Positions 5,959 through 49,960 of a DNA stretch of 64,000 bases are shown here, one piece after another. The stretch comes from Candidatus Poseidoniaceae archaeon (GTDB lineage Archaea; Thermoplasmatota; Poseidoniia; Poseidoniales; Poseidoniaceae): assembly GCA_965662895.1 (NCBI GenBank), contig CBFIJH010000007.1, forward strand, positions 32,001 through 96,000, given 5' to 3'. How positions within the stretch are numbered: the first letter of the stretch is position 1; the number at the start of each line of letters is the position of its first letter. The notes under the pieces were generated by a model. It saw only the letters and a list, made by a program, of their open reading frames with translations, did no database searches and was not told the DNA's origin. A program made the translations under genes and the position numbers.

Positions 5959-6768
5959 TCACCCCACCAAAACGAAGGCCATGTCACTGATGTGCCCTTC
6001 TGCGACGGCAATGGTCCAAAGGTCGCCAAGGAAGACGAAGCCGAGGCTTGTCCAGAACCAGAATCCGTGGGAACGATTGAACACACTGATTCGCTTGAAG
6101 AGACGACCACGGAAAGCAGAAATTCCGCTTACCCATCGGTCAAGACTACCACCAGCAAGGTGGCGAAGAGCGTGACATGAAGTCACGTACATGGTCAAGA
6201 GGAAAGCTTCCGTCGCCATAATGAAGGTTCCAAAGGAGAAGCCCCAACCGGTATCAAAGTGCAGGGTGTGGGTGACATCCCACCATTTGATGACGATGAT
6301 GATCATAGCAGCGTAGAGGAAGTATCGGTGAAGGTTGTTGAAGATGAACAAGCGCTTTTCGCCACCGTATCCAATCTTCTTGTTGATGTCTGGCTCATCG
6401 ACCCAGCAAGCTGTTGGTGATTGGAAGAATGTTCGATAATAGACGCGACGCATGTAGTAGCAGGTTCCACGGAAACCGAATGGAATCCAGAGAACAAGAA
6501 TTGCAGCATTGACCCAACTCGGATGGTCCCATTCATTGAGTCCGAACAAACTCCATTCGAGGATGTTTGGTGAGAAGATAGGAGAGACGACTGTTGAACC
6601 TTCGAGTTTGTAGTAGATGCTCTCAGGGAACAGAATTAATCGCCATGCAGTGTAAATGAGCGCAGCGGTAAGAGCCAGTCCCATCCAGAAGGGTTGTGCC
6701 CACCAATTGTCGATTCGATCGGTACGCCCAAGCCCGTTAATCACGGGGAGTTTGATGCCTTCTCCCAT
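5959..6768 (-). CDS. sdhC: Single membrane anchor of SDH (mycobacterial Sdh1/Rv0249c-like)
   Basis: First gene of operon; multi-TM; FRGTCYYMRRVYYR, NLHRY, SCHALRH motifs. Confidence 0.75.
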   Translation of the reverse strand: MGEGIKLPVINGLGRTDRIDNWWAQPFWMGLALTAALIYTAWRLILFPESIYYKLEGSTVVSPIFSPNILEWSLFGLNEWDHPSWVNAAILVLWIPFGFRGTCYYMRRVYYRTFFQSPTACWVDEPDINKKIGYGGEKRLFIFNNLHRYFLYAAMIIIVIKWWDVTHTLHFDTGWGFSFGTFIMATEAFLLTMYVTSCHALRHLAGGSLDRWVSGISAFRGRLFKRISVFNRSHGFWFWTSLGFVFLGDLWTIAVAEGHISDMAFVLVG

Positions 6769-6883
6769 AGGTTCACATCCGCCCCTCAAGGGGGCTTATA
6801 CTAACCCAACGACTAGGGGTCTTTGAGGTTGGCCCTTCGTCCCATTGCAGCGTTTGAAAGAAAAAGAAAGGCAATTTGAACGA

Positions 6884-8539
6884 TTAGACCAATTCGTCCC
6901 ATCGAACTTCTGCTTCAACCATCTCGATTTCATCAACATCCATCTGAGCAAGTTGCAATTTTCCAGAGAGTTCATCGTTGACAGCATGCCAGTAGGAATA
7001 GGCTTCAAGAACCCAAATTCCAGATTCTCGAGTTCCATTGCCGCTTCCTTTGACGCCACCGAACGGAAGATGCGCTTCTGCACCTGATGTGGAGTTGTTG
7101 ATTCCAGTCATTCCAGCCTTGATACCGGTCTTGAAGCGATATGCCTCGAGTCGATCGTTGGTGTAGATGGCCGAAGACAATCCGTACGGACTTGCGTTCG
7201 CTAGGTGAAGAGCATGGTCGAAATCATCCGCCTTGACCAAGGTAATGGCAGGCCCAAACAATTCCTCATGGAAGCAACGCATGTCTTCAGTAACGCCAGC
7301 GTAGACGTGTGGCCACATGAAGACGCCATCTTCTGGGGTTCCGAGGAAACCTGATGGCTTGTTATCGGACGTGATTCGACCTTCTCCGTAGAGTTTGGTT
7401 GCTCCGTCTTGTTCGCAGATCTGAATGACTTCAAGGAAATCCTTTGCGTACTTTTCAGAAAGCATCGACCCGTAAAGAACACCTTCATGCTCCAAGGAAT
7501 CTCCTATGCGTGTCGAATGGACCTTGTCCATCAATTTCGCAACGAACTCATCGTAGATGTCCTTGTGGATGATGAGGTTTCCAAGCGATGTGCAGCGTTG
7601 GCCTGCGGTTCCAAAACCTGCCCAATACGCTCCTTCAACGGCATTTTCAAGGTTCGCAGACGGCATGATGACCAGTGGATTTTTTCCACCGAGTTCGAGT
7701 GAACATGAGACGAGGTTTCGTCCACAGACTTCTCCAATCATCTTCCCAACAGCGGTTGAACCGGTAAATGAAATCTTGTTAACACGACCCTCGTCCACGG
7801 CATCAACAAGATACTGACCTGCCCCACTTCCCTTTCCATGGATGAGGTTGATGACGCCGTTCGGCAAACCGGATTGGTGCATGATTCGAGCGAGGGCAAA
7901 CGAAAGCAGAGGTGTGTCTTGAGGGGATTTCCAAACGCATGTGTTTCCACACATGATCGCTGGAATCATCTTCCAGAACGGTACGGCGGATGGGAAGTTG
8001 CAGGCGTTGATGATTCCACAAACACCAAGAGGGCGTCGGTAGGTGAACAGTTCCTTGTCTGGAAGTTCAGAGTTGACCGTTTGTCCGTACAAGCGTCGAC
8101 CTTCGGATTGGAAAAACAGGCAGGTGTCAATCGCTTCTTGGATTTCGCCTCCACATTCTTTCAACGTCTTCCCCATTTCTCGTGCTTGAAGTCGGACGAG
8201 ATCTTCCTTGCGTTCCATCAATAAACGACCCATGTTGCCTATGATCTGTCCACGGGTAGGTGCTGGTGTTGCTGACCATCCAGAGAAGGCAGCGTGAGCA
8301 GCATCCAAGGCAGCATCAACGTCGGCTTTGGTTGAGAGGGGAAAGACTCCTAGAACATCGTTCAGGATTGCTGGGTTCCGAGATTCAAAGGTCTCTCCGT
8401 TGCTTGATTCTTCGAGTTGACCATCAATGATGTTGTAACCTTTAACGCTTGGACGGTTTTTTGGGTTGTTGGCTTCGAGGAACGTCAGACCTGCTTCGAG
8501 AACGTGGACCATATTCTCGCGGAGTTCGCTTCCCTCCAT
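6884..8539 (-). CDS. Aldehyde dehydrogenase family protein
   Basis: FTGSTAVG, LELGGKNP, GQRCT catalytic Cys, EELFGP, PFGGVKGSG. Confidence 0.92.
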   Translation of the reverse strand: MEGSELRENMVHVLEAGLTFLEANNPKNRPSVKGYNIIDGQLEESSNGETFESRNPAILNDVLGVFPLSTKADVDAALDAAHAAFSGWSATPAPTRGQIIGNMGRLLMERKEDLVRLQAREMGKTLKECGGEIQEAIDTCLFFQSEGRRLYGQTVNSELPDKELFTYRRPLGVCGIINACNFPSAVPFWKMIPAIMCGNTCVWKSPQDTPLLSFALARIMHQSGLPNGVINLIHGKGSGAGQYLVDAVDEGRVNKISFTGSTAVGKMIGEVCGRNLVSCSLELGGKNPLVIMPSANLENAVEGAYWAGFGTAGQRCTSLGNLIIHKDIYDEFVAKLMDKVHSTRIGDSLEHEGVLYGSMLSEKYAKDFLEVIQICEQDGATKLYGEGRITSDNKPSGFLGTPEDGVFMWPHVYAGVTEDMRCFHEELFGPAITLVKADDFDHALHLANASPYGLSSAIYTNDRLEAYRFKTGIKAGMTGINNSTSGAEAHLPFGGVKGSGNGTRESGIWVLEAYSYWHAVNDELSGKLQLAQMDVDEIEMVEAEVRWDELV

Positions 8540-8620
8540 GAAGGCTACGATTCAATCCTCAGGCTTCACACCGGATTTTCATAACTCATGGTTTTAGTAC
8601 TCTCGGGACTTGGACTTGGT

Positions 8621-10846
8621 ATGTCCGGAGAAGATAACGAGGTATCGCTACGTGTTGCAAAAGCCATTCCTTCCGACGTCGGTCACGGCCGAGCTCGGAT
8701 TTCAGGCGACCACGGACTTGACCTCAAACCAGGCGACATTGTCGAAATCAAAGGCGAGAAGCGTTCAACAGCAGCAATCTATTGGCGCAGTCGACCAGAA
8801 GACGCCAAAATGGATATCGTCCGAATCGATGGTATTATTCGAAAAAATGCAGGCGTGAGCCTCGGCGATCGAGTCACCATCTCCAAATCGGAAGCAAAAG
8901 AGTGCAAGAAACTCACACTTTCCCCAGTGATGGCGAACAAGCAGAAGGTCAAATTTGGCCCCGGGATTGAGGGTTTCGCACGCCGTGGTCTCTCAAAACG
9001 TCCAGTCATGGCCGGTGATCGGATTTTCATTCCTGGGATGACACTCTTCGCTGAGGCTCTACCGTTTGCAGTGGTTCAAACCACACCAAAAGGCATCGTC
9101 AAAGTTACGAGCGATACGGACATTGTCATCAAAGACGAGGCCATCGATGACGAGGATGTTGGACAATCGGAAGGGATAACCTACGAAGACGTAGGTGGTA
9201 TCGGCCAACAACTCCAGAAAGTACGAGAGATGATTGAACTCCCACTTAAGCACCCAGAACTGTTCCGAAGACTGGGAATCGACCCACCGAAAGGTGTTCT
9301 TCTGCACGGGCCACCAGGCACCGGTAAGACCATGATTGCCAAAGCGGTTGCGACAGAAGTGAACGCTCACTTCAAATCCATTAATGGACCGGAAATCATA
9401 TCAAAATACTACGGTGAATCCGAGAAACAGTTGAGAGAAATTTTCGACGAAGCGAGTGAAAAAGCTCCTGCAATTATCTTCATTGATGAGATTGATTCAA
9501 TCTGTCCAAAACGCGAAGATGTCAGTGGCGAAGTGGAGCGACGTGTCGTTGCTCAGATGCTCACACTTCTTGACGGTATGCAGGGTAGAGACAACGTTGT
9601 TGTCATCGGTGCGACAAACCGACGTGACGCTCTTGACCCTGCACTGCGTCGAGGCGGTCGTTTCGATCGTGAAATCGAGATTGGTGTCCCTGACCGCGAC
9701 GGTCGAAAAGAAATCATGGAAGTTCACACCCGTCAAATGCCAATCGCTGACGACTTTGAAGTCAATTGGGTACTCGACAACACGTACGGGTTCGTAGGAG
9801 CTGATCTTGCTGCACTTGTACGAGAAGCTGCGATGAAGGCTTTGCGCAGGTACTTGCCTGAAATCGATCTTGATGAGGAGACCATTCCACCAGAAGTCCT
9901 CGAAAAGATGGAAGTACGAATGACCGACTTCAGAGATGCTATCAAGGACATCGAACCATCAGCTCTTCGTGAGATTTACGTTGAGGTTCCCGAAATTGCA
10001 TGGAATGAGGTTGGTGGACTTGACGAAGTTAAAGAGCGACTCAAGGAGTCCGTCGAATGGCCGCTCACCAAACCAGAAGTGTTTGAACATTTCAACATCA
10101 AACCTCCACGAGGAATTGTTTTGTTTGGCGCACCTGGTACTGGAAAAACGCTCCTTGCAAAAGCCATAGCGAATGAAGCTCAAGCCAACTTCATTTCCAT
10201 AAAAGGTCCTGAAATGATTTCCAAATGGGTTGGTGAATCCGAACGAGGTATTCGCGAAATCTTCAAGAAAGCGAAGCAGTCTTCACCTTCCATCATTTTC
10301 CTTGATGAATTTGAATCCATTGCGAGCATGCGAAATGCTTCGAACGGTGAAGGAAGCGATGTTGGCAACAGGGTTGTGAATCAACTGCTTGCGAGTATGG
10401 ATGGCGTCGAATCCCTCGACGGTGTCATTGTTGTCGCTGCGACCAATCGTCCGGAAATGATCGACCCCGCTCTGCTAAGAAGCGGACGATTTGAACGTGT
10501 TCTTCACGTTCCTCCGCCCGATGCACCTGCTCGCGAGGCTATTTTTGAGATTCATTCGAGTGGCATGCCGTTATCGAAGTTCTCCATCAAAGGTCTTCTT
10601 TCGAGTATGGAAGGTTTCACTGGAGCCGATATCGAGGCAGTTTGCAGGGAAGCTGCGCTCATTGCCATGCGCGAGGGCAAGAAGCGTGTCGCAAAGAAAC
10701 ACTTCGATGAGGCTGTAACACGTGTACGACCAACCGTTACGCCAGAGATGCTCGAATACTACCAGAAAATGGAGACACGGTTGACGTCTGGCTTGTCAAA
10801 CATCAAGCGCACGCGTGACTACAGTTACGGCATGGAAACAATGTGA
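8621..10846 (+). CDS. cdc48: CDC48/VAT family AAA+ ATPase
   Basis: N-domain plus two AAA modules ([13 protein letters not shown]; [13 protein letters not shown]). Confidence 0.95.
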
Positions 10847-10898
10847 GCACGGAAACGGTCAAGTTCTTCCTTTGCCTAGGATTTTCAAGGCGAGTCGA

Positions 10899-11141
10899 AT
10901 GACATCCAGTTTCGGTCAGGAAATGCTTGGACGAACAGTCCAAGACAAGAAAGGTAAGGAGCTTGGAAAACTTACCGATCTTGTTGTTGATGTTTCAAAC
11001 GGTGGAATTTCTGAACTTCTTGTCAAATGCTCAGAAAACATCGATACGAGTCGTCTTCCATTTCAGATGAAAGACGGTGCAGTTGCAATTCCTTCCAACG
11101 AGGTGGCCTCGTTTGGGCACGTGATTTCGCTCAAAATCTGA
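10899..11141 (+). CDS. PRC-barrel domain protein
   Basis: MLGRTVQDKKGKELGKLTDLVVDVSNGGISELLV...IP..V..FGHVI pattern. Confidence 0.8.
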   Translation: MTSSFGQEMLGRTVQDKKGKELGKLTDLVVDVSNGGISELLVKCSENIDTSRLPFQMKDGAVAIPSNEVASFGHVISLKI

Positions 11142-11227
11142 TGAGCATTTTCGCAACAGAGTTGGACAACCTTCTAAACCGATGTGAAACCGTGTGTGTA
11201 TGAACGGTGTACTAGGGAGGTGTGGAG

Positions 11228-12844
11228 ATGGCGGCCGAACGTAACAGAAATTTCAGGCGAATTGGGCTTCAACTCGCATTCTGGGCCGTTCTTGGAATCC
11301 TCCTCTTTACCATTCTTCAAAATTTCATCAACATTAGTCAAACCAATCAATTGTCAGCATACGATGACGATTGGAACGACATGTCTGCGTTTCGCGAAGA
11401 TATCAATGCCATGGGAGTTGAAACAAAATCTCTGGTAAGCAGCCCGCTTCTATTGGCCGACATTGAAGATCCACGAAATACCACGTTTGTCATCGCAGGT
11501 GTTGAACGAGATACGCTTTCACTTCCACAATTCGATGAAGATGGATTCATCACAATCGCCACTGAGGATGGTTATTCACCCTCAGAGGTTGATGCAATTG
11601 TTGAGTTTGTTGATAATGGTGGTACAGTCATTGTTCTGGAAGACTTTGGTTATGCTGGAAGCATCGGAGAAGCTTACGGTGTTCGCTATTCTGGATACCA
11701 GTTGTACGATACAAACTATGTCGCTGAATTGGATTATAACTACATCTGGATGTGTGTGCAGGCAAGTCCCTGCGGTATGAACGGAACGGTACTTGACCCC
11801 ACAACAATAGAAGAACACGAACGCTGGTCTTCTGAGGTTGGCGCTCATCCATGTTCCGAGCTTGACGGCCAATCCATGACCCTTGGGGAAGCAGGGGTCT
11901 GTTCGCACCACTGGGTTCGAAGCGCAGGTGAACTGGGACGTATTGAGTACAATGCAACCTACACAATGCTGCTCAACAACGTCACTGGTCTTGAAATCGT
12001 TCCTGGAGTCCGTGGCGCCCTCAATGATGTGAATATCCGTTCTGTAACAAGCAATCAGGCTACCGTTGACGTCAATGGCGATGGTGAACTTTGGGTGAGC
12101 AACGAACAAACAAGTGAAACACCTGATCTGTGGGGGCAATTCAACCTCTCGATTGAAGCGTGCGCCTCCACAAATTGCGATCCGGATGAAGGGGGACGCG
12201 TCTTCTTTGTCGCAGATGGTAGCGCACTGATAAACGCAATCTACGATTTTGAAGGATTCAATGCAGGAAAATACGGTGAAACAGGTAAACTCATTCCGGC
12301 AAACGACAACCGAAAGTGGGCCCTCGACGTTATCGCAGAATCCTTGATGAGCACGCTTGAAGGCGAAGAGGGCCAACCAGCAGAAAACGCCCTAGTGATA
12401 TTTGACGAAAGCCGCCACCCACAGAACGCCTTACTTGCAGATTCTTACAACACGGTTTACTTCCTCTTGGTCTATTTCACCGGTGAAGGGCTTGCAATGC
12501 TTGCACTGTTTGTTGTTCTCTTTATCACGTTTGAAGCAGTTCTTCTCAAAAAGCGAGACCCGGAGCCATGGCGTCATGTTTTCAGCATCATCTATTACGG
12601 ATTTGGGGATGCAAATCGTTACACCTATTATGCCAAAACGGAGAAAATACGGCAGGTATTTTTGTCAAAAGTTCGTAATCAAAACGGTTTGACCGTTGAA
12701 GAATTTCATGCCATGCCTGCCAAAGAACTCGTTGGCCTTATCCAAGATCCAGTGTTGGCGAAGTTTGCCATCGAACCTGGAAAATATTCGTTGGAACAAT
12801 CGGTTGCACTCGTGAAACGAATCAAAGCATGGGGGCGAAGGTGA
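11228..12844 (+). CDS. DUF4350-like membrane-anchored protein
   Basis: N-terminal TM, IVEFVDNGGTVIVLEDFG, GRVFFVADGSALIN, VIFDESRH, C-terminal TM. Confidence 0.7.
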   Translation: MAAERNRNFRRIGLQLAFWAVLGILLFTILQNFINISQTNQLSAYDDDWNDMSAFREDINAMGVETKSLVSSPLLLADIEDPRNTTFVIAGVERDTLSLPQFDEDGFITIATEDGYSPSEVDAIVEFVDNGGTVIVLEDFGYAGSIGEAYGVRYSGYQLYDTNYVAELDYNYIWMCVQASPCGMNGTVLDPTTIEEHERWSSEVGAHPCSELDGQSMTLGEAGVCSHHWVRSAGELGRIEYNATYTMLLNNVTGLEIVPGVRGALNDVNIRSVTSNQATVDVNGDGELWVSNEQTSETPDLWGQFNLSIEACASTNCDPDEGGRVFFVADGSALINAIYDFEGFNAGKYGETGKLIPANDNRKWALDVIAESLMSTLEGEEGQPAENALVIFDESRHPQNALLADSYNTVYFLLVYFTGEGLAMLALFVVLFITFEAVLLKKRDPEPWRHVFSIIYYGFGDANRYTYYAKTEKIRQVFLSKVRNQNGLTVEEFHAMPAKELVGLIQDPVLAKFAIEPGKYSLEQSVALVKRIKAWGRR

Positions 12845-12849
12845 GTCAC

Positions 12850-14103
12850 ATGTGGACGCGAAAAGCATCGTTTACTTTTACTGGTGGTATTGCACTCATT
12901 CTCATTGGGATGATGATTTCCAACAACCAAATGATGATTCTTGGTTTAACACTCATCACCTTCATTGTCGTAAATTCATGGGTTTCCGGCCATGGCGATA
13001 TCGAAGTACAACGCACACTTTCTGCAGATAACTTGTACAAAGGTGATGATTTGTACGTTGAGTTGCTTGTCACCAACCGATCGAATCGCCGAACCCAACT
13101 CTTGGATGTTTACGACAACATTCCTCACGAAATGAAGTTGCGTAGTGGATTGAATCAAATGCGGCTCAATTTGCGTCCCGGAGAGAGTGCTCGAATCCGA
13201 TACGTGTTGCGTTGTCCACTTCGTGGACATTACTCGATTGGTCCTGTTTCTCTTCGAGTTCGCAACACCTTCAATCTCGGAGTTGAGGACATGTACGTTG
13301 ACCATCATTCCGATATCGTCATCTTCCCTCAAATCAAAGAAGTCGAGGAAGCGTTCCTTCGCTCACGTACACCTAAAATGTACACTGGAGCAACAACGCT
13401 TCGAACACCAGGACAAGGGTCAGAATTTTATTCGCTGAGAGAATACGTACCTGGTGATCCGTTCAAAAACATCAACTGGAAGGCCTTTGCTCGAACTGGT
13501 GACTTAATGGTCAATGAAAAATGTCGAGATGCGGTAACTGATCTTTACATCCTTCTTGATTCCAGAGACGTTGCCCGCATCGGAACCGTTCTCAAGAATC
13601 CACTCGAGATGGGAACGGTAAGCGCTGCAAGTCTTGCAGCATTTTTCCTCAAGCGACGAGATAGCGTCGCTCTCGGAATCTATGGCGACGGTCTCGCTTA
13701 TTTGCCACCCGATACCGGTGACAAGCAGTATTTCAAAATCCTAAGTTCACTTGCTGGCGTAAAGCCAGAGGGAAGTATGCCACTGCAAGCCGTTACCAAT
13801 TCGCTCAGTGGACGTTTCAGCCGAGGTAGTCCGGTGTTTGTTATTTCATCCTGTGAAGGGGATGGAACGGTTCCTGCAGCAGTACGTGATCTTGTTGGTC
13901 GAGGTCATGAAGTAACTGTCCTATCGCCATCAAGCATTGATTTTGAACGACTTGTTTCTCGGATACCGCGTATGTCCTACGAAGTCCTGAAGTTGGAACG
14001 ACAAAACCGTTTGACGACGCTTGCAGGTTCTGGAGCGCAGGTCATTGATTGGATGCCAGATATGGATCTATCACAAGCGATTATGCAGGTAAGGGGGTAT
14101 TAG
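12850..14103 (+). CDS. DUF58 domain protein (VWA-like)
   Basis: 2 TM, Ig-like domain (RGHYSIGPV), GSEFYSLREYVPGDPFKNINWKAFAR signature. Confidence 0.9.
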   Translation: MWTRKASFTFTGGIALILIGMMISNNQMMILGLTLITFIVVNSWVSGHGDIEVQRTLSADNLYKGDDLYVELLVTNRSNRRTQLLDVYDNIPHEMKLRSGLNQMRLNLRPGESARIRYVLRCPLRGHYSIGPVSLRVRNTFNLGVEDMYVDHHSDIVIFPQIKEVEEAFLRSRTPKMYTGATTLRTPGQGSEFYSLREYVPGDPFKNINWKAFARTGDLMVNEKCRDAVTDLYILLDSRDVARIGTVLKNPLEMGTVSAASLAAFFLKRRDSVALGIYGDGLAYLPPDTGDKQYFKILSSLAGVKPEGSMPLQAVTNSLSGRFSRGSPVFVISSCEGDGTVPAAVRDLVGRGHEVTVLSPSSIDFERLVSRIPRMSYEVLKLERQNRLTTLAGSGAQVIDWMPDMDLSQAIMQVRGY

Positions 14104-15306
14104 ATGGCTGGTGAAGTTGATCCACAAAGCGATGTTTCCCTCATGGGAGGACGCACCCGAACTCTGCACCTCAAAACATTGCGCAAGCAATGGCAAATCA
14201 TCACGCTCCAAGTCGTCTCAACGATTGCACTGGTCTGGATGTATTTGGAAGTCGTCTCCACCTATGTTGTTGGAAGTATTGACCACACCATGTTGTTTGA
14301 ATCATTGGAAACAGCCGTCGGTGAGGTGCCAATTGGAGATTGGTTAATCGGTTCAGGCCGCACGGGACTCGCTCGATTCTATGTTCCTATCGTGTTGGGA
14401 CTTGGACTTGGTGGTTCAATGGCGCTTCTTGCTTTCCAATCACCACGCGTTCAACAACGAATCAAACTTGGATTTATCGTTACACTCATGCTTCTCCTGA
14501 TTGGACGACTCGTCCTTACGTGGATTCCTTCAATGCTCTTTTCATTGGACCTACGTGCACCGACAGAGAGCGAACTGAAGACTCTTGAATGGCCGCTTTT
14601 GATGATTCTTTCATTGATGATTTTGTTCATCTATCTGTTGCCCGTCATCATGGGAACCCGTGGAATTTGGGGCCTCTCACGCCGCTCCATCGGATGGGCG
14701 ATTGGATTCACCTTGCTCTTCTTGGGTATCCATGCTATCCTGACCTTCCCTCTCATCAAATCACAACTCGGAGATTGGGGCTCGAATTTGATATCGTTGG
14801 AATCACAAGTGAGTGATCCGACCGTCGGCCTTTTTGGATTCGACTTAGTGACTCCTGAACAATTTTCACTCATCTTGATTGCAGTGCTGATTATGGTGTT
14901 TCAAGAATCAGGATTCGGTGTCATCCGCTATCTCGAGTACGCGTATCGCCTTCCAGAGTCTTGCAAGAGAGATCCTGAATACGTACGACAAATGGACAAC
15001 GTCCTCAACGGTCATCTCCGTCACACAGCTGGTTTTCTAACCATCACAGGCATCGTGACGACGGTTGCACTCGGCTTCCATAGTGTCCTTCTCGAGGTGG
15101 TTCGAACCTCAACAGGCAGTCAATGGGCGGCGCAAGTATCCGAGTCGATTGAACTGTCGTTGACGTATGGGTTGGTCATTTCTGCACTTCTTTTCCTCAG
15201 TCTTATTGCTCTACTGAGGTTCTTTGTTCCTTGGCAGAGGGTATGGGGTCTTATCGAATCCTTTAGCAACAATGCACCCGAACCTGTGAAAGAAAAAGAA
15301 TTCTAA
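14104..15306 (+). CDS. Polytopic membrane protein, unknown function
   Basis: About 8 hydrophobic segments; abuts DUF58 stop. Confidence 0.75.
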   Translation: MAGEVDPQSDVSLMGGRTRTLHLKTLRKQWQIITLQVVSTIALVWMYLEVVSTYVVGSIDHTMLFESLETAVGEVPIGDWLIGSGRTGLARFYVPIVLGLGLGGSMALLAFQSPRVQQRIKLGFIVTLMLLLIGRLVLTWIPSMLFSLDLRAPTESELKTLEWPLLMILSLMILFIYLLPVIMGTRGIWGLSRRSIGWAIGFTLLFLGIHAILTFPLIKSQLGDWGSNLISLESQVSDPTVGLFGFDLVTPEQFSLILIAVLIMVFQESGFGVIRYLEYAYRLPESCKRDPEYVRQMDNVLNGHLRHTAGFLTITGIVTTVALGFHSVLLEVVRTSTGSQWAAQVSESIELSLTYGLVISALLFLSLIALLRFFVPWQRVWGLIESFSNNAPEPVKEKEF

Positions 15307-15543
15307 TCACGCTCGTGTTCGAATCGACTGAATCGTTCTTCCGAACAACTCGTTGAGAATCAACATACTCAATACGAGTCCAATTGACGAAAGCCATTGA
15401 TACAATGTTGAATCGATGTTTGACCAAGCATACTGATTGAGAAAAACAAATCCTATGATGGACAAAAGGAAGACCAACTTTTCAAGAAAAATTGGGTAAG
15501 AGGAACCTTTCGATTCATTGCGCATGAGAAGTGTTTCAACCAT
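15307..15543 (-). CDS. Small 2-TM membrane protein
   Basis: Two hydrophobic helices; GAGGTGG SD upstream; last gene of roadblock operon. Confidence 0.7.
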   Translation of the reverse strand: MVETLLMRNESKGSSYPIFLEKLVFLLSIIGFVFLNQYAWSNIDSTLYQWLSSIGLVLSMLILNELFGRTIQSIRTRA

Positions 15544-15552
15544 GCTTCCACC

Positions 15553-18500
15553 TCAGAAATCCAATTCAGAAAGTTGGTCATGCAAGGCTTCGAGTCGGGG
15601 GTCTGGTTTTGCTTCTTCTGCGTCAGGCACCCGTAATTGACGTTCCGCATCCAATCGAGCCAACTCGGCTTCAAGGTCGGCACGATCTTCTTGCATTGGC
15701 GTGGCTTCGACTTGTTCGCCTTCTGTTTCAAGAGGTTCTGAATCAGAGGGTGCTGGCATCGCTTCCCATTCCTCAGAAAGTTCTGAAACAGTTGGTTCTG
15801 AATCCAGCGACACGCTTTCCTCGACCACCAAGGTAGGTTGAATGGTTTCCATCATATCATCCATGACTGGGGTCCGTTGACCGACGGGTATTGAAGTGCG
15901 TTCAAACGGTAAGAAACCGTCTCGTTGGAAATCCCACATCGCTCCACGTGGTATTCCCCGAGTTAATCCAGAGGCATCGATTTGCGTCAACAGTTCTTCA
16001 AGAACCTGTGCTGTCTGTTCAAGCGCAATTGCTTCGCCAGCATCGCGTTGGTCAGCTTCGAGATAAATGTCATCGAGTGCAACACGTATGAGTCGTCGCG
16101 TTTCAACAGCAACACTTGGTAACGCTTCAGGTCGCATGCAATTCATTCGAAGCGCCTCGATTTCTTCAGGTGGAGCACCAAGGTCTCCAAGTTGATCAAG
16201 GACGTTTCGCATGCGTCGCAACATGGTAATTGAACGATCATAATCTTCCAGGATTCCCTCCAAATCGAGAATCAGGTGACCAACGGTCTCACCGAGTTGG
16301 TTTTCCAGTCGCTGTTGTACCGACCATCGTGCCAATCCTCGAACTGCGCCTGCAGTCTGTGGAACTTGGCGTTCGAGCAACGTCATCACCTCACTGCTGA
16401 GCAAATGACGAGGTGTAGCAGCAATATGGTCGACTGTGGACTGAACGACCTGTAGGGCTCGTTCAACAGCACGATCGAGAAGGACAACCGAATAACCAAG
16501 CGTACGTGCATGTTCAAGACGCTCAAGTACGGGTCCCAAACCTCGGAAGGTCGCATCATCATTGAGCAATGCTTGAGCAAGAGGCTCTTCTGACAATCTT
16601 GCACGCAGACGTTCCGCTTCGGCAATGTCTGAAACGGCTTCTTCATGCGCTTCAGTGAGAGCCTCAGCGCGAGCGATGAGCCCAGAAAGTTCAGTTTCTG
16701 CATTGCCTCGGCGAGCTCCAAGATTGCCAAGTTCGGTAAGCAACTCTTTCCGCTCACCCATTAACTCCCGCAGTTCAGCATGGAGTTGCATTCGCCGTGC
16801 CTCATCTTCTGCGAGACGTTGACGTTCTTCCTCAGCCCGTTGACGACTTGACAAGGTTTCTGCTTCAATTTGGTCCAACCGTGCCTGTGCAGTTCGGATC
16901 TTTTCTTCTGAAGCATTGCTCTTTGATTGGGCGCTTGCTTGTCGTTCCCTCAGGGTTGCAACTTGTTCCTCAAGTGTTCGCAATCGTCGTTCCTCAAGCT
17001 CGATTTGTTCTCGAATTGACGACAACTGTTGTGCGTTGGACTCTAAGTCTGCACGAGTTGTTGCTTCCTGATTTGACAGCGCTTCAAGTTCATCTCGAAG
17101 TGCAGCACTGCTTTGCGTATCTCCAAGCGCCTTTGCTAATTCTGTTGCACGCTCACTGAGTTGGTGCTCCAGTTCACTCACCCTACGTAGCAAACGATCA
17201 GCACGTGCTTCAGCTTGCTCCATCCGTGTTCTTGATTCAGAAACCGTCACTTGTACTCGGTTGAGTTCGTCGTTTTTCGACTGAATGGCAACGGTTTGGT
17301 CTCCAGAAGACTGTTTGACTTCCTCGAGCCGAACCATTGCTTCAGTTCGCTCTTTTTCAGCATCCTGAAGTTGAGTGGTTAAGCTCGCATTTGCGCGCAT
17401 TAATGAGTCAGCTCGACGCTCGGATTCCTCCAGCCTTCGTCGTAATCCTGAATCAACCGCTGCAAGCGGAGCAGAGTTTGGTAGCGGTTGAGATGTTTCT
17501 TGCCCACCGACATGAATGCGTAGTTTTGCTCGAACGGCTCGAACATCATCAAGACCAATTTCAAAACCATACATGCTCATCAATCGATGCATCATAGAAG
17601 TTCTGCGCTTTTCGGAACGAGTACGTACAGTGGACAGTTGTTCTACAAATTGTTTGAGTGTAAATTCGGAAACATCACCGGTTGAAGCGGAAATCATCGT
17701 CCCAGAGGCCAGTCGATGCAACTTCAACACACGCTTGCTTTCCGTCAATCCAAGCATTGCTTCCTCGAACGATTGTCCGTTCGCTGCCAGTGCTACTGGA
17801 AGACCGTTGTTCAATGCAAGTGAGACCGCCTTGTCGCTGACACCTGCTTTGAGATGACCAGTAACTCGATCTTCAAGTGCTGCAGAAAGCATAGACATGA
17901 CGGCATCTGAGCCGCCCTTTCCCTCTCGAAGAATGAAACCGTCAGGCAGTGATGCTTCACCCTCGGCATATGTTCCTATTTCTCCATCAAGTTTGGCGGC
18001 TACATCGGACAACAAGCGTGCATGATTCGCATCAAGCTCCGTCCATATCGCTAACACGATGGTGCTGCTTGAGGCGATAAGTAAAGACGCATCTCCCATA
18101 TTCAACGATGCGTAACCTTGACCATCTCCTCCGAGCGTCTCATGCTGTGCATTCATTGCATCCGAGAGCGAGGCAACAGTTGCAGCGAGGTCTTCAGCAG
18201 ATCCTGGTAACTCACCCATGCTATCGATGACAATTCCTTGATCAGCGGCGAGACCTCCACGTACGTGCTCGTAATCAGAGAGCGCTTGAAGAACTGCAGA
18301 TAAGTTTCGGGCGAAGAGGCGATCTGTCAATGCGCCTCCAGAACCGAGTCCCTGTGCATCTGCTTGGAACTCAAAGGCTTCTGGTAGAAGTTTTGCAAGC
18401 TCAGCCAAGCCATGCATTGAGCATGTTGAGGCAACCAAACGATGTTGGTTTTTCTCAGCCTCTTCAAGCGCTTCTCGAGCGTCAGCGCCGCCGAGTAGTT

Positions 18501-18684
18501 TGGTTGCGCTCGTCCCTTCACAAATCCAACCAACAATCCTTCCAGCACGAACCAATCGGTGTCCGAAGGGGGTTTTTCGTCGGCCAACCCATGTTGTGAT
18601 GTACCCATGTTCAAAAGGCTGGAGTCCTCCAGATGCAACATCCACTTCATCGTCGAATCGCTCAATATGTGGTAAATCAAACAT
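15553..18684 (-). CDS. Large protein with internal Roadblock/LC7-like domain and long coiled coil
   Basis: LSAVLQALSDYEHVRGGLAADQGIVID...AEDLAATVASL...LAIWTELDANHARL resembles roadblock; ~300-aa E/R/Q/L heptad region. Confidence 0.75.
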   Translation of the reverse strand: MFDLPHIERFDDEVDVASGGLQPFEHGYITTWVGRRKTPFGHRLVRAGRIVGWICEGTSATKLLGGADAREALEEAEKNQHRLVASTCSMHGLAELAKLLPEAFEFQADAQGLGSGGALTDRLFARNLSAVLQALSDYEHVRGGLAADQGIVIDSMGELPGSAEDLAATVASLSDAMNAQHETLGGDGQGYASLNMGDASLLIASSSTIVLAIWTELDANHARLLSDVAAKLDGEIGTYAEGEASLPDGFILREGKGGSDAVMSMLSAALEDRVTGHLKAGVSDKAVSLALNNGLPVALAANGQSFEEAMLGLTESKRVLKLHRLASGTMISASTGDVSEFTLKQFVEQLSTVRTRSEKRRTSMMHRLMSMYGFEIGLDDVRAVRAKLRIHVGGQETSQPLPNSAPLAAVDSGLRRRLEESERRADSLMRANASLTTQLQDAEKERTEAMVRLEEVKQSSGDQTVAIQSKNDELNRVQVTVSESRTRMEQAEARADRLLRRVSELEHQLSERATELAKALGDTQSSAALRDELEALSNQEATTRADLESNAQQLSSIREQIELEERRLRTLEEQVATLRERQASAQSKSNASEEKIRTAQARLDQIEAETLSSRQRAEEERQRLAEDEARRMQLHAELRELMGERKELLTELGNLGARRGNAETELSGLIARAEALTEAHEEAVSDIAEAERLRARLSEEPLAQALLNDDATFRGLGPVLERLEHARTLGYSVVLLDRAVERALQVVQSTVDHIAATPRHLLSSEVMTLLERQVPQTAGAVRGLARWSVQQRLENQLGETVGHLILDLEGILEDYDRSITMLRRMRNVLDQLGDLGAPPEEIEALRMNCMRPEALPSVAVETRRLIRVALDDIYLEADQRDAGEAIALEQTAQVLEELLTQIDASGLTRGIPRGAMWDFQRDGFLPFERTSIPVGQRTPVMDDMMETIQPTLVVEESVSLDSEPTVSELSEEWEAMPAPSDSEPLETEGEQVEATPMQEDRADLEAELARLDAERQLRVPDAEEAKPDPRLEALHDQLSELDF

Positions 18685-19025
18685 TATATCTCCTCATTTT
18701 GTTTTGAATTCCAATCGTTACGCAGCCGTTCAAGTTCGTAACGCCAGGTGCCCATTTTCCCATCTTTGCCAGAGAGGTGGACGAAAACATCGTAGTCAAA
18801 CCGATCAAAAAGGGTCAATCGTCGCCCTTCACTCCAAACTTCAAACAGCGTGCCGAGTTTGAGTTCTTCTGCAACTGCACAACATTCTGCCCATTCGCGT
18901 CGTTGTTCCCCAGCAGTCTCGGGCCATTTCTTCGTGGTCTGAACAACACCGCCAAACTGATCCATCACGCGGACGTGATTCACACCATTGAGTTCGCAAA
19001 GTTGAGAAAACAACGTCTCCAACAT
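18684..19025 (-). CDS. Small Roadblock/profilin-like protein
   Basis: MLETLFSQLCELNGVNHVRVMDQFGGVV...MGTWRYELERL helix-strand pattern; TAATG coupling to next gene. Confidence 0.6.
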   Translation of the reverse strand: MLETLFSQLCELNGVNHVRVMDQFGGVVQTTKKWPETAGEQRREWAECCAVAEELKLGTLFEVWSEGRRLTLFDRFDYDVFVHLSGKDGKMGTWRYELERLRNDWNSKQNEEI

Positions 19026-19099
19026 CTTAGCCCAAACCTCTTCACAGCAACGTACCATTCAAGAACTTTGCCGAAACTCTTCCCCCGTAGGGGGATTTG

Positions 19100-21823: not shown

Positions 21824-23587
21824 ATGCTCTGGGGCGATGTCGATGAGGCGATACAAGCCGAGCGTTTGGTTCGAATTCAGAGAATCGAGCGATTGAGTAC
21901 CATTTGCGCCTTATTTTGTCTCAGTGGAGCGGTTTGGCTGGCTTGGCCAGTACTCAAGGATGCATTTGTTGGTGATGCGAGCCTCCTTACTGGGCTTGGA
22001 ATGCCAGTCCTTGTTCTACTTTGGGGCATTGTCATACAGGACCTCATTCTCGATGATCCTCGAGCTCGCACACGAATCGGAGCGGCTTCAAGCATCATCT
22101 GGCCAGTATTTCTTGTGTTTGCCTTGCGGTCCTATTCAACAAATCCGACCGATCTTCTCGCAATGGTTCTCTTCGCAGCATTGGGTTTTGCAACGTACCA
22201 ATCGTCAGCAAACACGCTCCGCGGTGGAATCGATGTTATGCGGTTCCGAGCGATGATGACGGGTCTTGGTGCACTAACAGTGCTTGGTGTGCTTGTAGGC
22301 GACCGAGCAGGTCGAACGTGGATTGTTGAGCCTGAAGATTGGGCTCACCCTATCTTGTGCCTTGTGATACTTCTTCACGTGGGATATCTTTGGATTGCGG
22401 GCGATGATATGCGAGAAGAACGGAAAGCCTTCCGCCAAGAACTCGATATCATTGAGAATCGATTGCTCGTTTTGCGATCTGAAGGAGCCGCTGTTGATCA
22501 GGCCAGTAGCCTTGTCATGACGGCAAAGGAGGAAGGCCACATCGACCCGTCATTCGGTATGCGTCTCCTTCGTGAGGCAACCGAAGACATAGAGCGTTCG
22601 TTATCCCTTGCTACGGACGTCGATGTTGTGCGAGGTGAAGCCCTTCTCGTCATTCAGCACGCTGAAGAATTGGCACCTCTCGCCAAGCGTCCACGTAAGT
22701 CTTACGAAATGGGAGAACGAGAAGCTTCTCTAGGTTCTCTGCGGGAAGCGGAAGGACTCTTTCGTCAAGCGAAGCGAAGAGCGCAAGAAATCGTTACCTG
22801 GTGGGAGCAAGCAGAAGAAGCCATCCAAACAGCGGACGAACTACTCACCGGCAAATCCGGCGCAACCATCGACAATTTGCGTCAAATCATTCGCGACGCA
22901 CGAAAGCAACTTGACCGGGAGGCACCAAAGAAGGCATTCGAACTTGCATGTGTGATCCCGATTCAATTGCAAGCAGATGGTGATGCTCGTGAGCGTGCAG
23001 TTGAAGTTTTGAGCGATGCAGCAAAAGCACTCAAAGCAACAGATGGATTCGACACCAATGAACTTGAAAAGCGCCTTGAGCAGGCAGAATCAGCGCTCGA
23101 AGCGGGTGATACAGGTCAATCGATTGGCCTTGCAGAGGGGGTTCTTCGCGTGATTCAAATTGAACGCGAATCCATGGAGACGGTCCGTCGCGCACTCCGC
23201 CAACGCAAGAAGATCACAGAGCGATTTGAACATTTTACTGATGCCGAAGAATGGATGGCTCGATTTAAACAGGTTCAGAACGCAGCGGATGAGCGGGAAT
23301 GGAGTCATGCGGCAACGTTGCTTGAACGTTTAACCATCGACCTCGATGCACTCGGTAGCGAACAAGACGAAGCACAGGCATTGCTTGATTTCGTTCGCCA
23401 AGAATGGGCAGTCTTGCGAAACCAATGCAATGCTTCGAGCATACCGGTTTCGGATGAGGATATGAGACAAACTGAGGCGGCAGTTTCCCTCGCAGAAGAA
23501 TATCTCACGAAAGGCCAGGTTGAAGCATCCCTCAAGCAACTTGGTCAAGCCGATGCTTCGATGGAACGACTTCGAAGGCGAGTTTAA
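21824..23587 (+). CDS. Membrane protein (~6 TM) with long helical/coiled-coil C-terminal region
   Basis: Hydrophobic first ~190 aa, then A/E/R/L-rich helical repeats. Confidence 0.75.
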   Translation: MLWGDVDEAIQAERLVRIQRIERLSTICALFCLSGAVWLAWPVLKDAFVGDASLLTGLGMPVLVLLWGIVIQDLILDDPRARTRIGAASSIIWPVFLVFALRSYSTNPTDLLAMVLFAALGFATYQSSANTLRGGIDVMRFRAMMTGLGALTVLGVLVGDRAGRTWIVEPEDWAHPILCLVILLHVGYLWIAGDDMREERKAFRQELDIIENRLLVLRSEGAAVDQASSLVMTAKEEGHIDPSFGMRLLREATEDIERSLSLATDVDVVRGEALLVIQHAEELAPLAKRPRKSYEMGEREASLGSLREAEGLFRQAKRRAQEIVTWWEQAEEAIQTADELLTGKSGATIDNLRQIIRDARKQLDREAPKKAFELACVIPIQLQADGDARERAVEVLSDAAKALKATDGFDTNELEKRLEQAESALEAGDTGQSIGLAEGVLRVIQIERESMETVRRALRQRKKITERFEHFTDAEEWMARFKQVQNAADEREWSHAATLLERLTIDLDALGSEQDEAQALLDFVRQEWAVLRNQCNASSIPVSDEDMRQTEAAVSLAEEYLTKGQVEASLKQLGQADASMERLRRRV

Positions 23588-26146
23588 TCAAACCAAACCA
23601 CGTTGAGCAAGGTTGTCGATGTCCAATCCACTCGGTAATCCAAGGTCAACAGGCATACCTGCAATGGTTACAACAATTCCATAGAGGTGAAGATAAAGCC
23701 CATGCGGGGGTTGATTTTCTGCGTCAAATGGAATCTTTTTCCATACTTTTGACTTCATGTAATGATTTGCAACGGATTCCTCCTTTGAGTGAACAATCCA
23801 TACATTTGCTTGACTTGCATGCTTTTTCGCTGCTGTCGAACCGAGCCGAGGTGAAACGTGGACGGTGTGAAGGATCGGCCAATTACGCACCCAATCGCCT
23901 TCAGAATCGATGAGCATCGTCATCTTGGTTGGTTCGGTTGCCATAGAATCGAGCAGTCCGAGTTCATTCAGAATCCGAATCAATGACCGAACATGGGGGT
24001 GGCGAGGTTCCTTTGTTCGTAACTCTCGTCCGATTCGGACTGCAGTGTTCGGTCGATTGGCATCCAAGTGCAACAAGGCAGCAACAACTCGACCTTGCGC
24101 CCACGATGTTGACGGTAACTTTGAATCGTCTTCATGTTGTTTCATGAACGATTCAAGCATGGAAAGTGCCTCCTCACTGCGGCCCTCCAAACGCATGCGT
24201 GCACAATCTCCGAGGAGAATGAGTCGATCTGCGGGTTTGTTGCGATATTTTCGATTGCTTCGTGGATTTCCTTCAGAGGTACGCTTCAACAAATCGATGT
24301 TTCTACGCATTAAGGGATCAACGCCCAAGACCGGTTGCGAGGCATCTGGAACAACACGTTTCGGGTCAAGAACAGCAGCAAACCATTGCAAACGTGCTGC
24401 CTCAATATCGCTCTTGTTAAGGAGTGCAAGGCGAGGCGCTGCTTCGGGTAGGTCGCGTTGACACAAGCTTGCAGCAGCGAGAATCAATCGGGCAACTTGG
24501 GCATCTCTCCCTGCCTGCAAAGCCAACAAGGAGACAGCATTTTCTTCGGCCTCTTCCCAACGATTCATCCCTGCATAAAGTTGCATCTTTGCATTTGTTT
24601 GTCGAAGCAAATCGAGTCCTTGTGTTGAGGCCTCAGAGGGGTTCAAAATCTCATCGTAGAATTCAATCGCTTTTGTCCACCGATCCTTTGCGATAAGTTC
24701 CGTGAAAGGTCGTTGTTTGAGATAAATCATATCCTCCATTTGTGTAAGCATTTGTCGTTGTTCACTGATGCTTGCATCAAACGAGATGTCATCAAGTTTT
24801 GAACCAACTTGCAATGAAGTCAACCAAACGAGAAGGAAACAAACTTGACCACCAGATGCTAACATCCACGTTAGTTCCTCCATCGCATCCTTTTCGACAT
24901 AGGTACACAATGTTCCTTCCCAGTCACCGCAAGCAGCACCCTGGGGAAGGAAACTTGAATCCCAGAAGGTGATCATGGCAAGTGCCAAGAGAAGCATCGA
25001 CTGTCCAGCAAATCCAGTGAAGCAGAAGTTCAGAACTTTTGCTTGCTGACTTCGCTCTGCTCGCAGCAAACGGCTGTCTGCGAGCCGGATACCACCTCGG
25101 CCCGATACATCTTGAACATCAAGGAACAAGATACGAGCAACTTCGTAAACGAAAAGAAAACCAACCAAGGCGACGTTCAGCAACAAGAACAGGAGAATCG
25201 AGGTAACCAACGGTACGCGTAAGCCAGGGTCGGGAATATTGGAGAACAATTCGATGAGAAAGAACCCAAGGATACCACCTTCTTCCATGATGGTTGCTTG
25301 CTCTCGGTATTCAGGCAACGCAATGACTTGGTCAGAGTGCGTAAACAATTCTGGAGATACGATGATTGCAATGAGGGATAACAAGGTGTTGATCGCAACA
25401 ACGGGCATGGCTATGGTGTTGAGATGAACAATTCGAGCAATGACTTGCTGTCGGGCGTTTGGCGAATGATTGTGAAACGGTGATGGATTTCCTTTCGCAA
25501 TTTGAGAAGATGATTGACGCAGTGCCTGCCATGATGTTCCCATGACGCGGCCATATGCAACAATCGATGGGGAGAAGGCAACGAGAAGCGTGATGCTCAA
25601 TCGGTGCGTGAATGCAATATCCCACGTGCCGAGAATTGAATACAAAAATCCAACACCAATGAACCAACATAGAGTCAGTGCGATGTAGGCTGTGTTGCGA
25701 GCACTGCTCGAAACCTGCAGTTTTGCTTTCCCGTGACCAATCGGTTTGATGATTTGCGCACCAAGAGAGGAACCGGATGAAATCACTGCTGGAAGGATGA
25801 TGAGAATCAAAGCAAGTGAGATGTTTGGAGCATGAAACCCATCGCTCCATCCTTGTGCATAGATGATGTATTCAAAGAACAACAACAATGCGCCAGTAAG
25901 TGCAAAAAGATAGGTTGCAACACCAAACCGCATACCTCGACTACGAAGGAGATCACGTGCTTCACTGAAGGAATCTGTGACCGTGTGGACTTCGTATCGT
26001 TTCGGTCCGGTTTCAAACGCGACTTGCAGCCCACGCAATTGACGGGGAACAACGGTTCTCCAGAACAAGAGCGCAATCACGGCTGCAAGAAGAAGGGGAA
26101 CTGTGGCAATTGAGGCAAAGCCCTCAACAATCACTGGTCCACTCAT
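23588..26146 (-). CDS. Polytopic membrane protein with C-terminal TPR-like helical domain
   Basis: About 9 TM segments then repeats such as RWEEAEENA, RSEEALSML, RPNTAVRI. Confidence 0.7.
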   Translation of the reverse strand: MSGPVIVEGFASIATVPLLLAAVIALLFWRTVVPRQLRGLQVAFETGPKRYEVHTVTDSFSEARDLLRSRGMRFGVATYLFALTGALLLFFEYIIYAQGWSDGFHAPNISLALILIILPAVISSGSSLGAQIIKPIGHGKAKLQVSSSARNTAYIALTLCWFIGVGFLYSILGTWDIAFTHRLSITLLVAFSPSIVAYGRVMGTSWQALRQSSSQIAKGNPSPFHNHSPNARQQVIARIVHLNTIAMPVVAINTLLSLIAIIVSPELFTHSDQVIALPEYREQATIMEEGGILGFFLIELFSNIPDPGLRVPLVTSILLFLLLNVALVGFLFVYEVARILFLDVQDVSGRGGIRLADSRLLRAERSQQAKVLNFCFTGFAGQSMLLLALAMITFWDSSFLPQGAACGDWEGTLCTYVEKDAMEELTWMLASGGQVCFLLVWLTSLQVGSKLDDISFDASISEQRQMLTQMEDMIYLKQRPFTELIAKDRWTKAIEFYDEILNPSEASTQGLDLLRQTNAKMQLYAGMNRWEEAEENAVSLLALQAGRDAQVARLILAAASLCQRDLPEAAPRLALLNKSDIEAARLQWFAAVLDPKRVVPDASQPVLGVDPLMRRNIDLLKRTSEGNPRSNRKYRNKPADRLILLGDCARMRLEGRSEEALSMLESFMKQHEDDSKLPSTSWAQGRVVAALLHLDANRPNTAVRIGRELRTKEPRHPHVRSLIRILNELGLLDSMATEPTKMTMLIDSEGDWVRNWPILHTVHVSPRLGSTAAKKHASQANVWIVHSKEESVANHYMKSKVWKKIPFDAENQPPHGLYLHLYGIVVTIAGMPVDLGLPSGLDIDNLAQRGLV

Positions 26147-49906: not shown

Positions 49907-49960
49907 TTGTTCAAACAACGCCCCCAAACCCTTAGAGATGAGCGGTGGCAAGAACACTAC

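Follow-up and report, generated by a model that had tools for sequence, protein, structure and literature searches.

Roadblock domains usually control small GTPases, and the locus described here raises the question of what such domains do in an archaeon whose genome shows no Ras-like GTPase. The locus lies on a stretch of 64,000 nucleotides ('the window' below; positions 32,001 to 96,000 of contig CBFIJH010000007.1, assembly GCA_965662895.1) from a Poseidoniales (Marine Group II) archaeon, whose genome (the source genome) is 92% complete. Three minus-strand open reading frames (ORFs; 18684–19058, 15553–18684 and 15307–15543 in the ORF list of the window) follow each other head to tail and encode a small Roadblock/LC7-type protein, a large protein with a Roadblock domain embedded in its head, and a protein with two hydrophobic stretches (2-TM, for two transmembrane segments). 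The first two form a pair that represents a new family, with a new architecture around a known domain, restricted to one lineage and found only in Poseidoniales. We read the pair as a GTPase-independent, non-enzymatic two-gene scaffold or rod module specific to this order, a reading to which we give even chances.

The three ORFs and their common orientation had been called in a first-pass annotation made from the sequence alone, and all were recovered, as was the TAATG junction of the first two, at which the TAA of the small gene and the ATG of the large gene have base 18684 in common. Translation from the first in-frame ATG of the small gene gives 124 amino acids (aa; 18684–19058) and from the second, at 19025, the 113 aa annotated at first; the latter start was taken as the conserved one because a stop codon separates the two ATGs in two congeners (loci L017 and L018). 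A GGAGGTGA-like Shine-Dalgarno motif was located 5–8 nt upstream of the ATG of the large gene in the 25 junctions that were printed. The stop of the large gene is followed by a GGTG motif, with the 2-TM start 9 nt downstream in the window, and in most of the 25 junctions the 2-TM gene begins ~10–25 nt past the large gene with its own GGTG motif. The overlap and the conserved Shine-Dalgarno motifs predict tight coupling of the first two genes, in support of a scaffold pair. No Pfam family was matched by any of the three proteins at E up to 0.1 beyond chance-level rows, and a sigma-70 promoter/terminator scan, of a model type not suited to archaea, gave nothing above shuffles. The nearest database proteins came from Poseidoniaceae or Poseidoniales metagenome-assembled genomes, two of them named as Roadblock/LC7/MglB family by JGI.

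Membership of both proteins in the Roadblock/LC7 superfamily rests on profile and fold, not on a Pfam gathering score. A profile of 25 small-protein orthologues (15–52% identical to the window copy) matched solved Roadblock proteins (7f8m, E 1.1e-10; 7yh1, 3.5e-8; MglC 7ct3, 3.4e-5), and the top PDB sequence match of the internal domain was 3leq, which agrees with the internal Roadblock-like domain proposed in the first-pass annotation. An AlphaFold2 model of aa 1–400 of the large protein, calculated from a 25-row alignment, resolved three domains (pLDDT, the predicted local distance difference test, 82.7; pTM, the predicted template modelling score, 0.65), and in a fold search with this model the Roadblock domain filled the match list. 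The Roadblock units have the order alpha-beta-beta-alpha-beta-beta-beta(-alpha) over about 100–120 residues that is characteristic of the superfamily. The Pfam model Robl_LC7 (PF03259) matched 5/25 orthologous heads (best E 1.8e-4); scanned against the source genome it gave nothing above cut-off, its weak match there being an arginase.

The domains on either side of the internal Roadblock domain (domains 1 and 3; Table 1) had been described as two similar alpha/beta segments resembling DUF2226 and PATAN. A beta-beta-beta-alpha-beta-alpha run is indeed common to both in the modelled secondary structure, but likeness in sequence is not supported, because profile-profile comparison of the two by hhalign gave a probability of 0.3%. 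Neither domain had a PDB sequence match or, in 25 members, a Pfam match; PF14332 (PATAN/PatA_N) and PF09987 (DUF2226) matched none of these members at E up to 10. What is left of the proposed likeness comes from neighbours in a protein-language-model Atlas, where scores below the mark of 0.9 are a lead only: domain 1 lay next to unnamed archaeal clusters (0.90–0.91), DUF2226 (0.86) and PatA_N (0.85), and domain 3 had PatA_N clusters on top (0.86 and 0.85), followed by DUF2226 (0.81). Both domains are left unclassified, domain 3 as possibly PATAN-like. The PatA_N scan of the source genome matched a different gene (E 0.16), the weak DUF2226 match there was threonyl-tRNA synthetase, and neither family exceeded its cut-off in any of 151 Thermoplasmatota genomes. 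The head is followed by a neck with 19% lysine plus arginine, in which R354 and T355 of an RTRSE motif and F374 of a GFExG motif are invariant.

The coiled coil, helical domain and acidic tail annotated at first in the 1043-aa protein are all present. Hydrophobicity in the rod has a period of 3.50, with a power 52 times the median, and falls into two unbroken heptad runs (about 410–509 and 526–679) with a register shift at a conserved island (497–525) that contains G521; the rod has no proline and 3% glycine. In 25/25 sequences from three families, 32–78% identical to the window protein, the distance from E422 to P701 is 279 residues with no indel, somewhat short of the ~300 aa first given for the coil, and would correspond to roughly 40 nm if straight. 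From P701 to Q920 the distance is 219 ± 1 residues, and elsewhere the length varies, by up to 7 residues in head segments and by >50 in the tail linker (range 24–77). To judge from the alignment, the coil length is under strict constraint. The C-terminal domain has 71% column identity, which suggests a conserved binding surface. The tail region (27–33% aspartate plus glutamate) carries two peptides, (D/E)ERxxLEAELARLDA and then ALxxLExxLSDLD plus a terminal hydrophobic residue; this last residue, after an acidic one, is L, F, M or I in 24/25 sequences and W in 1/25.

No Walker A motif was present in the window protein, as stated in the first-pass annotation, and the chance pattern seen in 3/25 homologues is not conserved. 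NCBIfam and PADLOC matches covered the coil only (aa 411–705), corresponded to SMC/Rad50 arms and were far below cut-offs (TIGR02168, 47 bits against a cut-off of 567). An SMC/Rad50/JetC-type identity was rejected, there being no Walker A ATPase head and the library matches being confined to the coil below cut-offs; membership in a defence system was rejected with the PADLOC matches as coiled-coil noise; and a link of the C-terminal peptides to ESCRT/MIT was rejected on finding no MIT or Snf7 match in the source genome at E up to 1. Across Pfam, Walker A, NCBIfam and PADLOC, no enzyme signature was found in the large protein.

Table 1. Coordinates of the three genes and of the parts of the large protein in the window (AF2, AlphaFold2)
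Feature	Positions	Strand	Basis or remark
Small Roadblock/LC7-type protein, 113 aa	18684..19025	(-)	Start set by stops in two congeners; orthologue profile matches solved Roadblock proteins
Large protein, 1043 aa: three-domain head, neck, coiled-coil rod, C-terminal bundle, acidic tail	15553..18684	(-)	
Domain 1, aa 1-108, mostly beta plus two helices	18361..18684	(-)	AF2 model, pLDDT 81-92 there
Internal Roadblock domain, aa 118-238	17971..18333	(-)	
Domain 3, aa 243-342, beta-alpha-beta-beta-beta-alpha-beta, possibly PATAN-like	17659..17958	(-)	AF2 model
Basic neck helix, aa 343-409	17458..17658	(-)	Alignments; long helix 358-385 in model
Coiled-coil rod, aa 410-700	16585..17457	(-)	Heptad periodicity
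C-terminal all-helical domain, aa 701-935	15880..16584	(-)	Most conserved part
Acidic proline-rich linker (aa 936-998) and two conserved peptides	15556..15879	(-)	Tail alignment, 25 sequences
2-TM protein, 78 aa	15307..15543	(-)	Co-transcription suggested by spacing; order-wide family

For a GTPase partner, models of Ras, Arf and Roc were run, and nothing rose above cut-off in the window or in the rest of the source genome, so that the first-pass statement that the window holds no GTPase gene extends genome-wide. Weak Ras and Roc matches fell on an adenylate-kinase-like protein, another weak Ras match on a GPN-loop GTPase and further weak ones on larger GTPases. With the Ras model, 150 of 151 Poseidoniales genomes gave no match or a marginal one (<26 bits where listed), for the most part to ORFs of about 370–440 or 670 aa. 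The sole strong Ras-family match in these genomes (113.9 bits; locus L064, G160:C7:14637-15146) was in genome G160, which also has a second Ras-like copy with stops (G160:C15:807-1445); the gene may be a contamination or a transfer. No gene for a GTPase or other nucleoside triphosphatase (NTPase) partner adjoined the pair in 38 loci, and the Ras-superfamily GTPase that would make up a switch of the MglA/MglB type was not found encoded in the source genome. Beside the gene of the GPN-loop GTPase of the source genome lies a long proline-rich repeat protein with PPMPEAPPAP-like units (L022 1796-3130), whose repeats read as a glycine-rich ORF on the other strand.

Distribution was surveyed in 251 Poseidoniales genomes at least 80% complete (families labelled f1–f3, f1 being Poseidoniaceae; genera given g-numbers), all of them metagenome-assembled drafts, in which 'not found' does not equal absence. 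The large protein, found in 31/41 relatives, was detected by profile search in 158/251 genomes (f1 125/127, f2 2/2, f3 30/121), in most of them as a single copy. It was not found in seven f3 genera (g5 0/12, g6 0/7, g7 0/16, g8 0/11, g10 0/21, g24 0/14 and g25 0/9), which have the smallest genomes, about 1.1–1.7 Mb. Outside the order, a profile of the C-terminal domain matched nothing in 230 Thermoplasmatota genomes, 8 of them of the same class. A head profile (aa 1–400) searched against 1.84 billion representative proteins gave 82 matches at E ≤ 0.001, among them 10 proteins of 1020–1089 aa, many fragments of the large-protein family and 8 stand-alone proteins (116–147 aa) aligned to the Roadblock part only, Pfam Robl_LC7 being present in 3 of the 4 stand-alone proteins scanned. 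None of the 82 had this head in another architecture, and a word-seeded search for the C-terminal domain in longer proteins returned only the large-protein family and its fragments among the 120 matches listed.

Synteny was counted in 38 loci with a large gene (18 genera, ten loci from the genus of the window), using hidden Markov models built partly from the counted sequences. A small ORF lay directly upstream of the large gene in 37/38 loci. In the exception (L036, about 1365-1490; genome G221) the small Roadblock gene seems disrupted, with a short in-frame N-terminal remnant, which may reflect a frameshift or an assembly error in the draft. A 2-TM ORF lay downstream in 36/38 loci (L015 ends at a contig edge, and none was detected in L032); in one f2 genome (G027, L016 7120-8505) a 461-aa gene stands between the large gene and the 2-TM gene. 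In loci from genera without the large gene the pair was missing as a unit in 5/5, with 350–450 bp left in its place and both flanks intact: CDC48-PRC-DUF4350-DUF58-membrane protein on one side (PRC not detected in L061) and TtuA(-PyrI-PyrB) on the other. A tree built for 12 taxa from five flanking proteins (1950 columns) placed the pair-lacking taxa (g5, g7 twice, g10 and g25, with g6, g8 and g24 outside the tree) in one group against all pair-bearing taxa with support 1.0.

The 78-aa protein has two hydrophobic stretches, in line with the 2-TM protein of the first-pass annotation, and belongs to a conserved family, which was found in 231/251 genomes and all 25 genera. It was present in 78/90 genomes of the seven pair-lacking genera, and an 81–83-aa homologue stood at the same place and in the same orientation in 5/5 loci without the pair. 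The unit is therefore a pair and not a trio, because the 2-TM gene persists where both others are lost; the pair is the evolutionary unit and presumably the functional one. Joint conservation of the trio holds wherever the large gene exists and fails where the pair is gone, and the first-pass proposal of a membrane anchor in a three-gene unit is weakened. The 2-TM protein has its own role, whether or not it also serves to receive the rod.

In the scaffold or rod module that we favour, the large protein would be a rod with a three-domain head that includes a Roadblock domain, a coil of fixed length, a helical bundle and a flexible acidic tail with two peptides. The small Roadblock protein would be made in step with it through translational coupling, and would pair with the internal Roadblock domain or dock on the head, giving a two-Roadblock platform as in MglB/MglC and Ragulator. 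We infer the pairing of Roadblock with Roadblock from the coupling, the co-loss and the habit of the fold; dimerisation of the rod, its scaffold or spacer role and any membrane link are inferences as well. Because no Ras-like GTPase was found in the organism, the platform would not act on one, and therefore the head and the C-terminal bundle with its tail peptides would have other binding partners and keep these at a set distance from each other; alternatively, the rods may pack side by side in register. The 2-TM protein would be a possible membrane receptor and not an obligate part.

Several results weigh against this scaffold reading. Neither window protein matched Robl_LC7 at E up to 0.1, and the small protein and the internal domain were related by hhalign only at E 6e-4 and a probability of 29%. 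Prediction of a complex of head and small protein gave a median score of 0.28 (mark 0.32), which counts neither for nor against it. No fold is assigned to domains 1 and 3 or to the C-terminal domain, which may thus hold an unrecognised activity. An unrecognised NTPase partner is possible, since a GPN-loop GTPase and DRG-like GTPases exist, and a coil of fixed length would suit a self-assembling filament or an antiparallel folded arm no less than a spacer. The module is also dispensable, because a whole clade lives without the pair. The scaffold reading and the four rivals weighed below overlap, and the data do not separate them.

The rival that survives best, although rather unlikely in our estimate, is that the pair regulates or positions type IV pilus-like machines: the head, with its Roadblock and PATAN-like domains, would bind a pilus assembly ATPase, in the way that PATAN regulators are reported to bind PilB in cyanobacteria, and the rod would place or space the machines. 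It draws on the distribution of the pair, which matches that of two non-archaellar T2SSE/T2SSF loci, both type IV pilus-like. The source genome has four T2SSE matches, of which the 575-aa one adjoins archaellins and the fourth is weak. In a Tad-like locus on another contig (L068 3199-9069) a 414-aa T2SSE ATPase (7825-9069) is encoded together with two T2SSF proteins and three unknown ones, and a PilB3-like locus, 3.6 kb past the end of the window (L069 3650-11025), combines two T2SSF genes with those of a 508-aa PilB3-like ATPase (6018-7544) and a DUF7262 protein. Strong T2SSE matches occurred in all pair-bearing genera, two or three in most genomes, and in the pair-lacking genera once each in g10 and g25 and in none of g5–g8 and g24. 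Orthologues of the 414-aa ATPase (71–77% identity) were found in 19/20 pair-bearing f2/f3 genomes (18 whole and one split over two contigs; none in G212) and in 0/31 genomes of pair-lacking genera, which had only an archaellum-size paralogue at 33–34% identity, or nothing. A paralogue of about 460–540 aa, in or near the PilB3-like size class, was present in 18/20 pair-bearing and 0/31 pair-lacking genomes. Fragments of the 414-aa ATPase are present in G157, a draft of 240 contigs that yielded no pair. The pilus reading also draws on the PatA_N clusters among the Atlas neighbours of domains 1 and 3: passages of PMC4316618 describe MglB, itself a Roadblock protein, as having homologues encoded near PATAN proteins, and PATAN regulators are reported to interact with the pilus motor (bioRxiv 10.1101/2021.06.11.447907).

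Against this stand the PATAN likeness, which is under every threshold, and the position of the pair, which adjoins neither pilus locus, the nearer one being about 49 kb off on the same contig. The archaellum is unlinked to the pair, and an obligate link was rejected by genus tallies in the same 251 genomes: the large protein occurs without archaellin in g3 (2/2 and 0/2 genomes, respectively), g4 (3/3 and 0/3) and g22 (9/9 and 0/9), and archaellin without the large protein in g10 (20/21 and 0/21) and g25 (9/9 and 0/9). Moreover, the sampled pair-lacking genera (g5, g7, g10 and g25) are one clade, whose lineage shed some 0.4 Mb. Because the pair-lacking taxa form one group, one loss event in a streamlining lineage can explain the co-distribution, and the co-loss of pair and pilus loci is only a lead. 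A more specific form of the pilus idea, which we regard as quite unlikely, is a GTPase-free polarity or positioning device in which a platform of two Roadblock units and PATAN-like domains, carried on the rod, would dock on the assembly ATPases of the two non-archaellar pilus-like machines and set their site or spacing; if true, it would be a GTPase-free counterpart of the control of bacterial pili by MglA, MglB and PATAN.

An intermediate-filament-like element, in our view unlikely, would have the fixed-length rods assemble laterally in register, as filaments or as a lattice under the membrane, with the Roadblock head and the tail as decoration sites and a role in cell shape or size. Invariant rod length marks intermediate-filament proteins and is what they have in common with the large protein, whose central rod keeps its length strictly despite low identity. 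The long unbroken heptad runs with one conserved break, the conserved head and tail domains on either side of the rod and the small genomes of the genera without the pair also speak for it. Counting against it, no sequence relation to known filament formers was seen, and a large globular head with a 235-residue bundle is not typical of bacterial intermediate-filament-like proteins.

That 2-TM protein and pair form a three-part membrane-tethered system, in which the rod is held at the membrane by the 2-TM protein and none of the three proteins works without the others, we consider improbable: the close spacing, the separate GGTG motif and the downstream position in 36/38 loci are what it would lead one to expect, but the 2-TM gene is kept in 5/5 loci and 78/90 genomes without the pair and is separated from the large gene by another gene in the f2 genome. 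Least credible, and very improbable, is action on a non-Ras NTPase (a GPN-loop GTPase, a DRG/Obg-type GTPase or a ParA/MinD-type ATPase) as its GTPase-activating protein, guanine nucleotide exchange factor or adaptor, by which the Roadblock domains would retain their ancestral part as NTPase regulators. This accords with the general prediction that Roadblock proteins regulate NTPases (Koonin and Aravind 2000, cited in a passage of PMC4316618), with the GPN-loop GTPase of the source genome (L022) and with ORFs of about 374 aa that have marginal Ras-model matches in Poseidoniales, but no such gene is adjacent in the 38 loci and such NTPases are housekeeping proteins, which would be expected in the pair-lacking clade as well.

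The scaffold pair was compared with known systems that have parts in common with it. MglB/MglC of the MglA polarity module of Myxococcus and Thermus (6hjm, 6h5b, 3t1r, 7ct3) have the same fold, whereas the Poseidoniales pair is archaeal and confined to one order, has one Roadblock domain embedded in a 1043-aa rod and occurs in a source genome with no Ras-like GTPase detected. In sequence and in structure, both Roadblock units were matched best by Asgard Roadblock proteins (7f8m of Thorarchaeota; 7yh1, 9jue and 9jq8 of Prometheoarchaeum), which, unlike the pair, stand alone at about 120 aa, with no head-rod-bundle architecture among them in the searches made. The Roadblock heterodimers of Ragulator/LAMTOR (5x6u, 6b9x, 2zl1), whose fold the pair has as well, serve Rag GTPases and lack a coiled-coil rod; as to membrane anchoring, the two are alike by analogy only. 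PATAN (PF14332) and DUF2226 (PF09987) are the nearest named Atlas neighbours of domains 1 and 3, with no match by hidden Markov model. In the actinobacterial conservon (CvnA-D) the gene of the small Roadblock protein CvnB (compare 3leq, the top PDB sequence match of the internal domain) is accompanied by those of a membrane protein and of a protein without known function, as in the trio; the conservon includes a GTPase (CvnD) and a histidine kinase, as stated in a passage of PMC4316618, and the Poseidoniales locus, unlike it, has neither. SMC/Rad50 arms have a long heptad coil in common with the large protein, but the pair is without ATPase head or Walker A, and the relation is limited to coiled-coil composition. 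No published description of the family was found in full-text literature searches, whose scope left out subscription journals and supplements.

The genes around the trio are housekeeping genes or unrelated to it. On one side, convergent with the trio, are genes for CDC48, a PRC-barrel protein, a DUF4350-like protein, DUF58 and a 400-aa membrane protein; on the other side are TtuA (divergent), PyrI and PyrB. The CDC48-type double AAA ATPase (752 aa) overlaps the next gene, for the PRC-barrel protein (108 aa; PF05239, E 5.5e-8; window 8588-11141, plus strand), and the two are kept together in syntenic loci of distant genera, the PRC protein being detected in 4/5. The DUF4350-like protein, DUF58 and the 400-aa protein, which is multi-pass and without family (window 11222-15306, plus strand), form a block kept order-wide beside the locus, even where the pair is lost. 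Further along, window 21824-26146 encodes a 587-aa protein with N-terminal membrane segments and long helical repeats, also present in 3/5 pair-lacking loci checked, and an 852-aa multi-pass membrane protein with a tetratricopeptide repeat-like end, neither with a Pfam family; a 1033-aa ORF (window 49907-53008, plus strand) matched no Pfam family at E up to 0.01.

In surface waters of the ocean, few archaea are as abundant as Poseidoniales; their cell biology is barely known, and we know of no cultured member. The pair is strongly constrained, with a 500-residue stretch free of indels order-wide, and near-universal in Poseidoniaceae (125/127), yet the source genome shows no Ras-like GTPase. 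Partners, if found, would reveal the work of a Roadblock platform that has no GTPase to control and would open a first way into the internal organisation, or the control of pili, in Poseidoniales cells, for which the dispensability of the pair in one streamlined clade provides a natural comparison.

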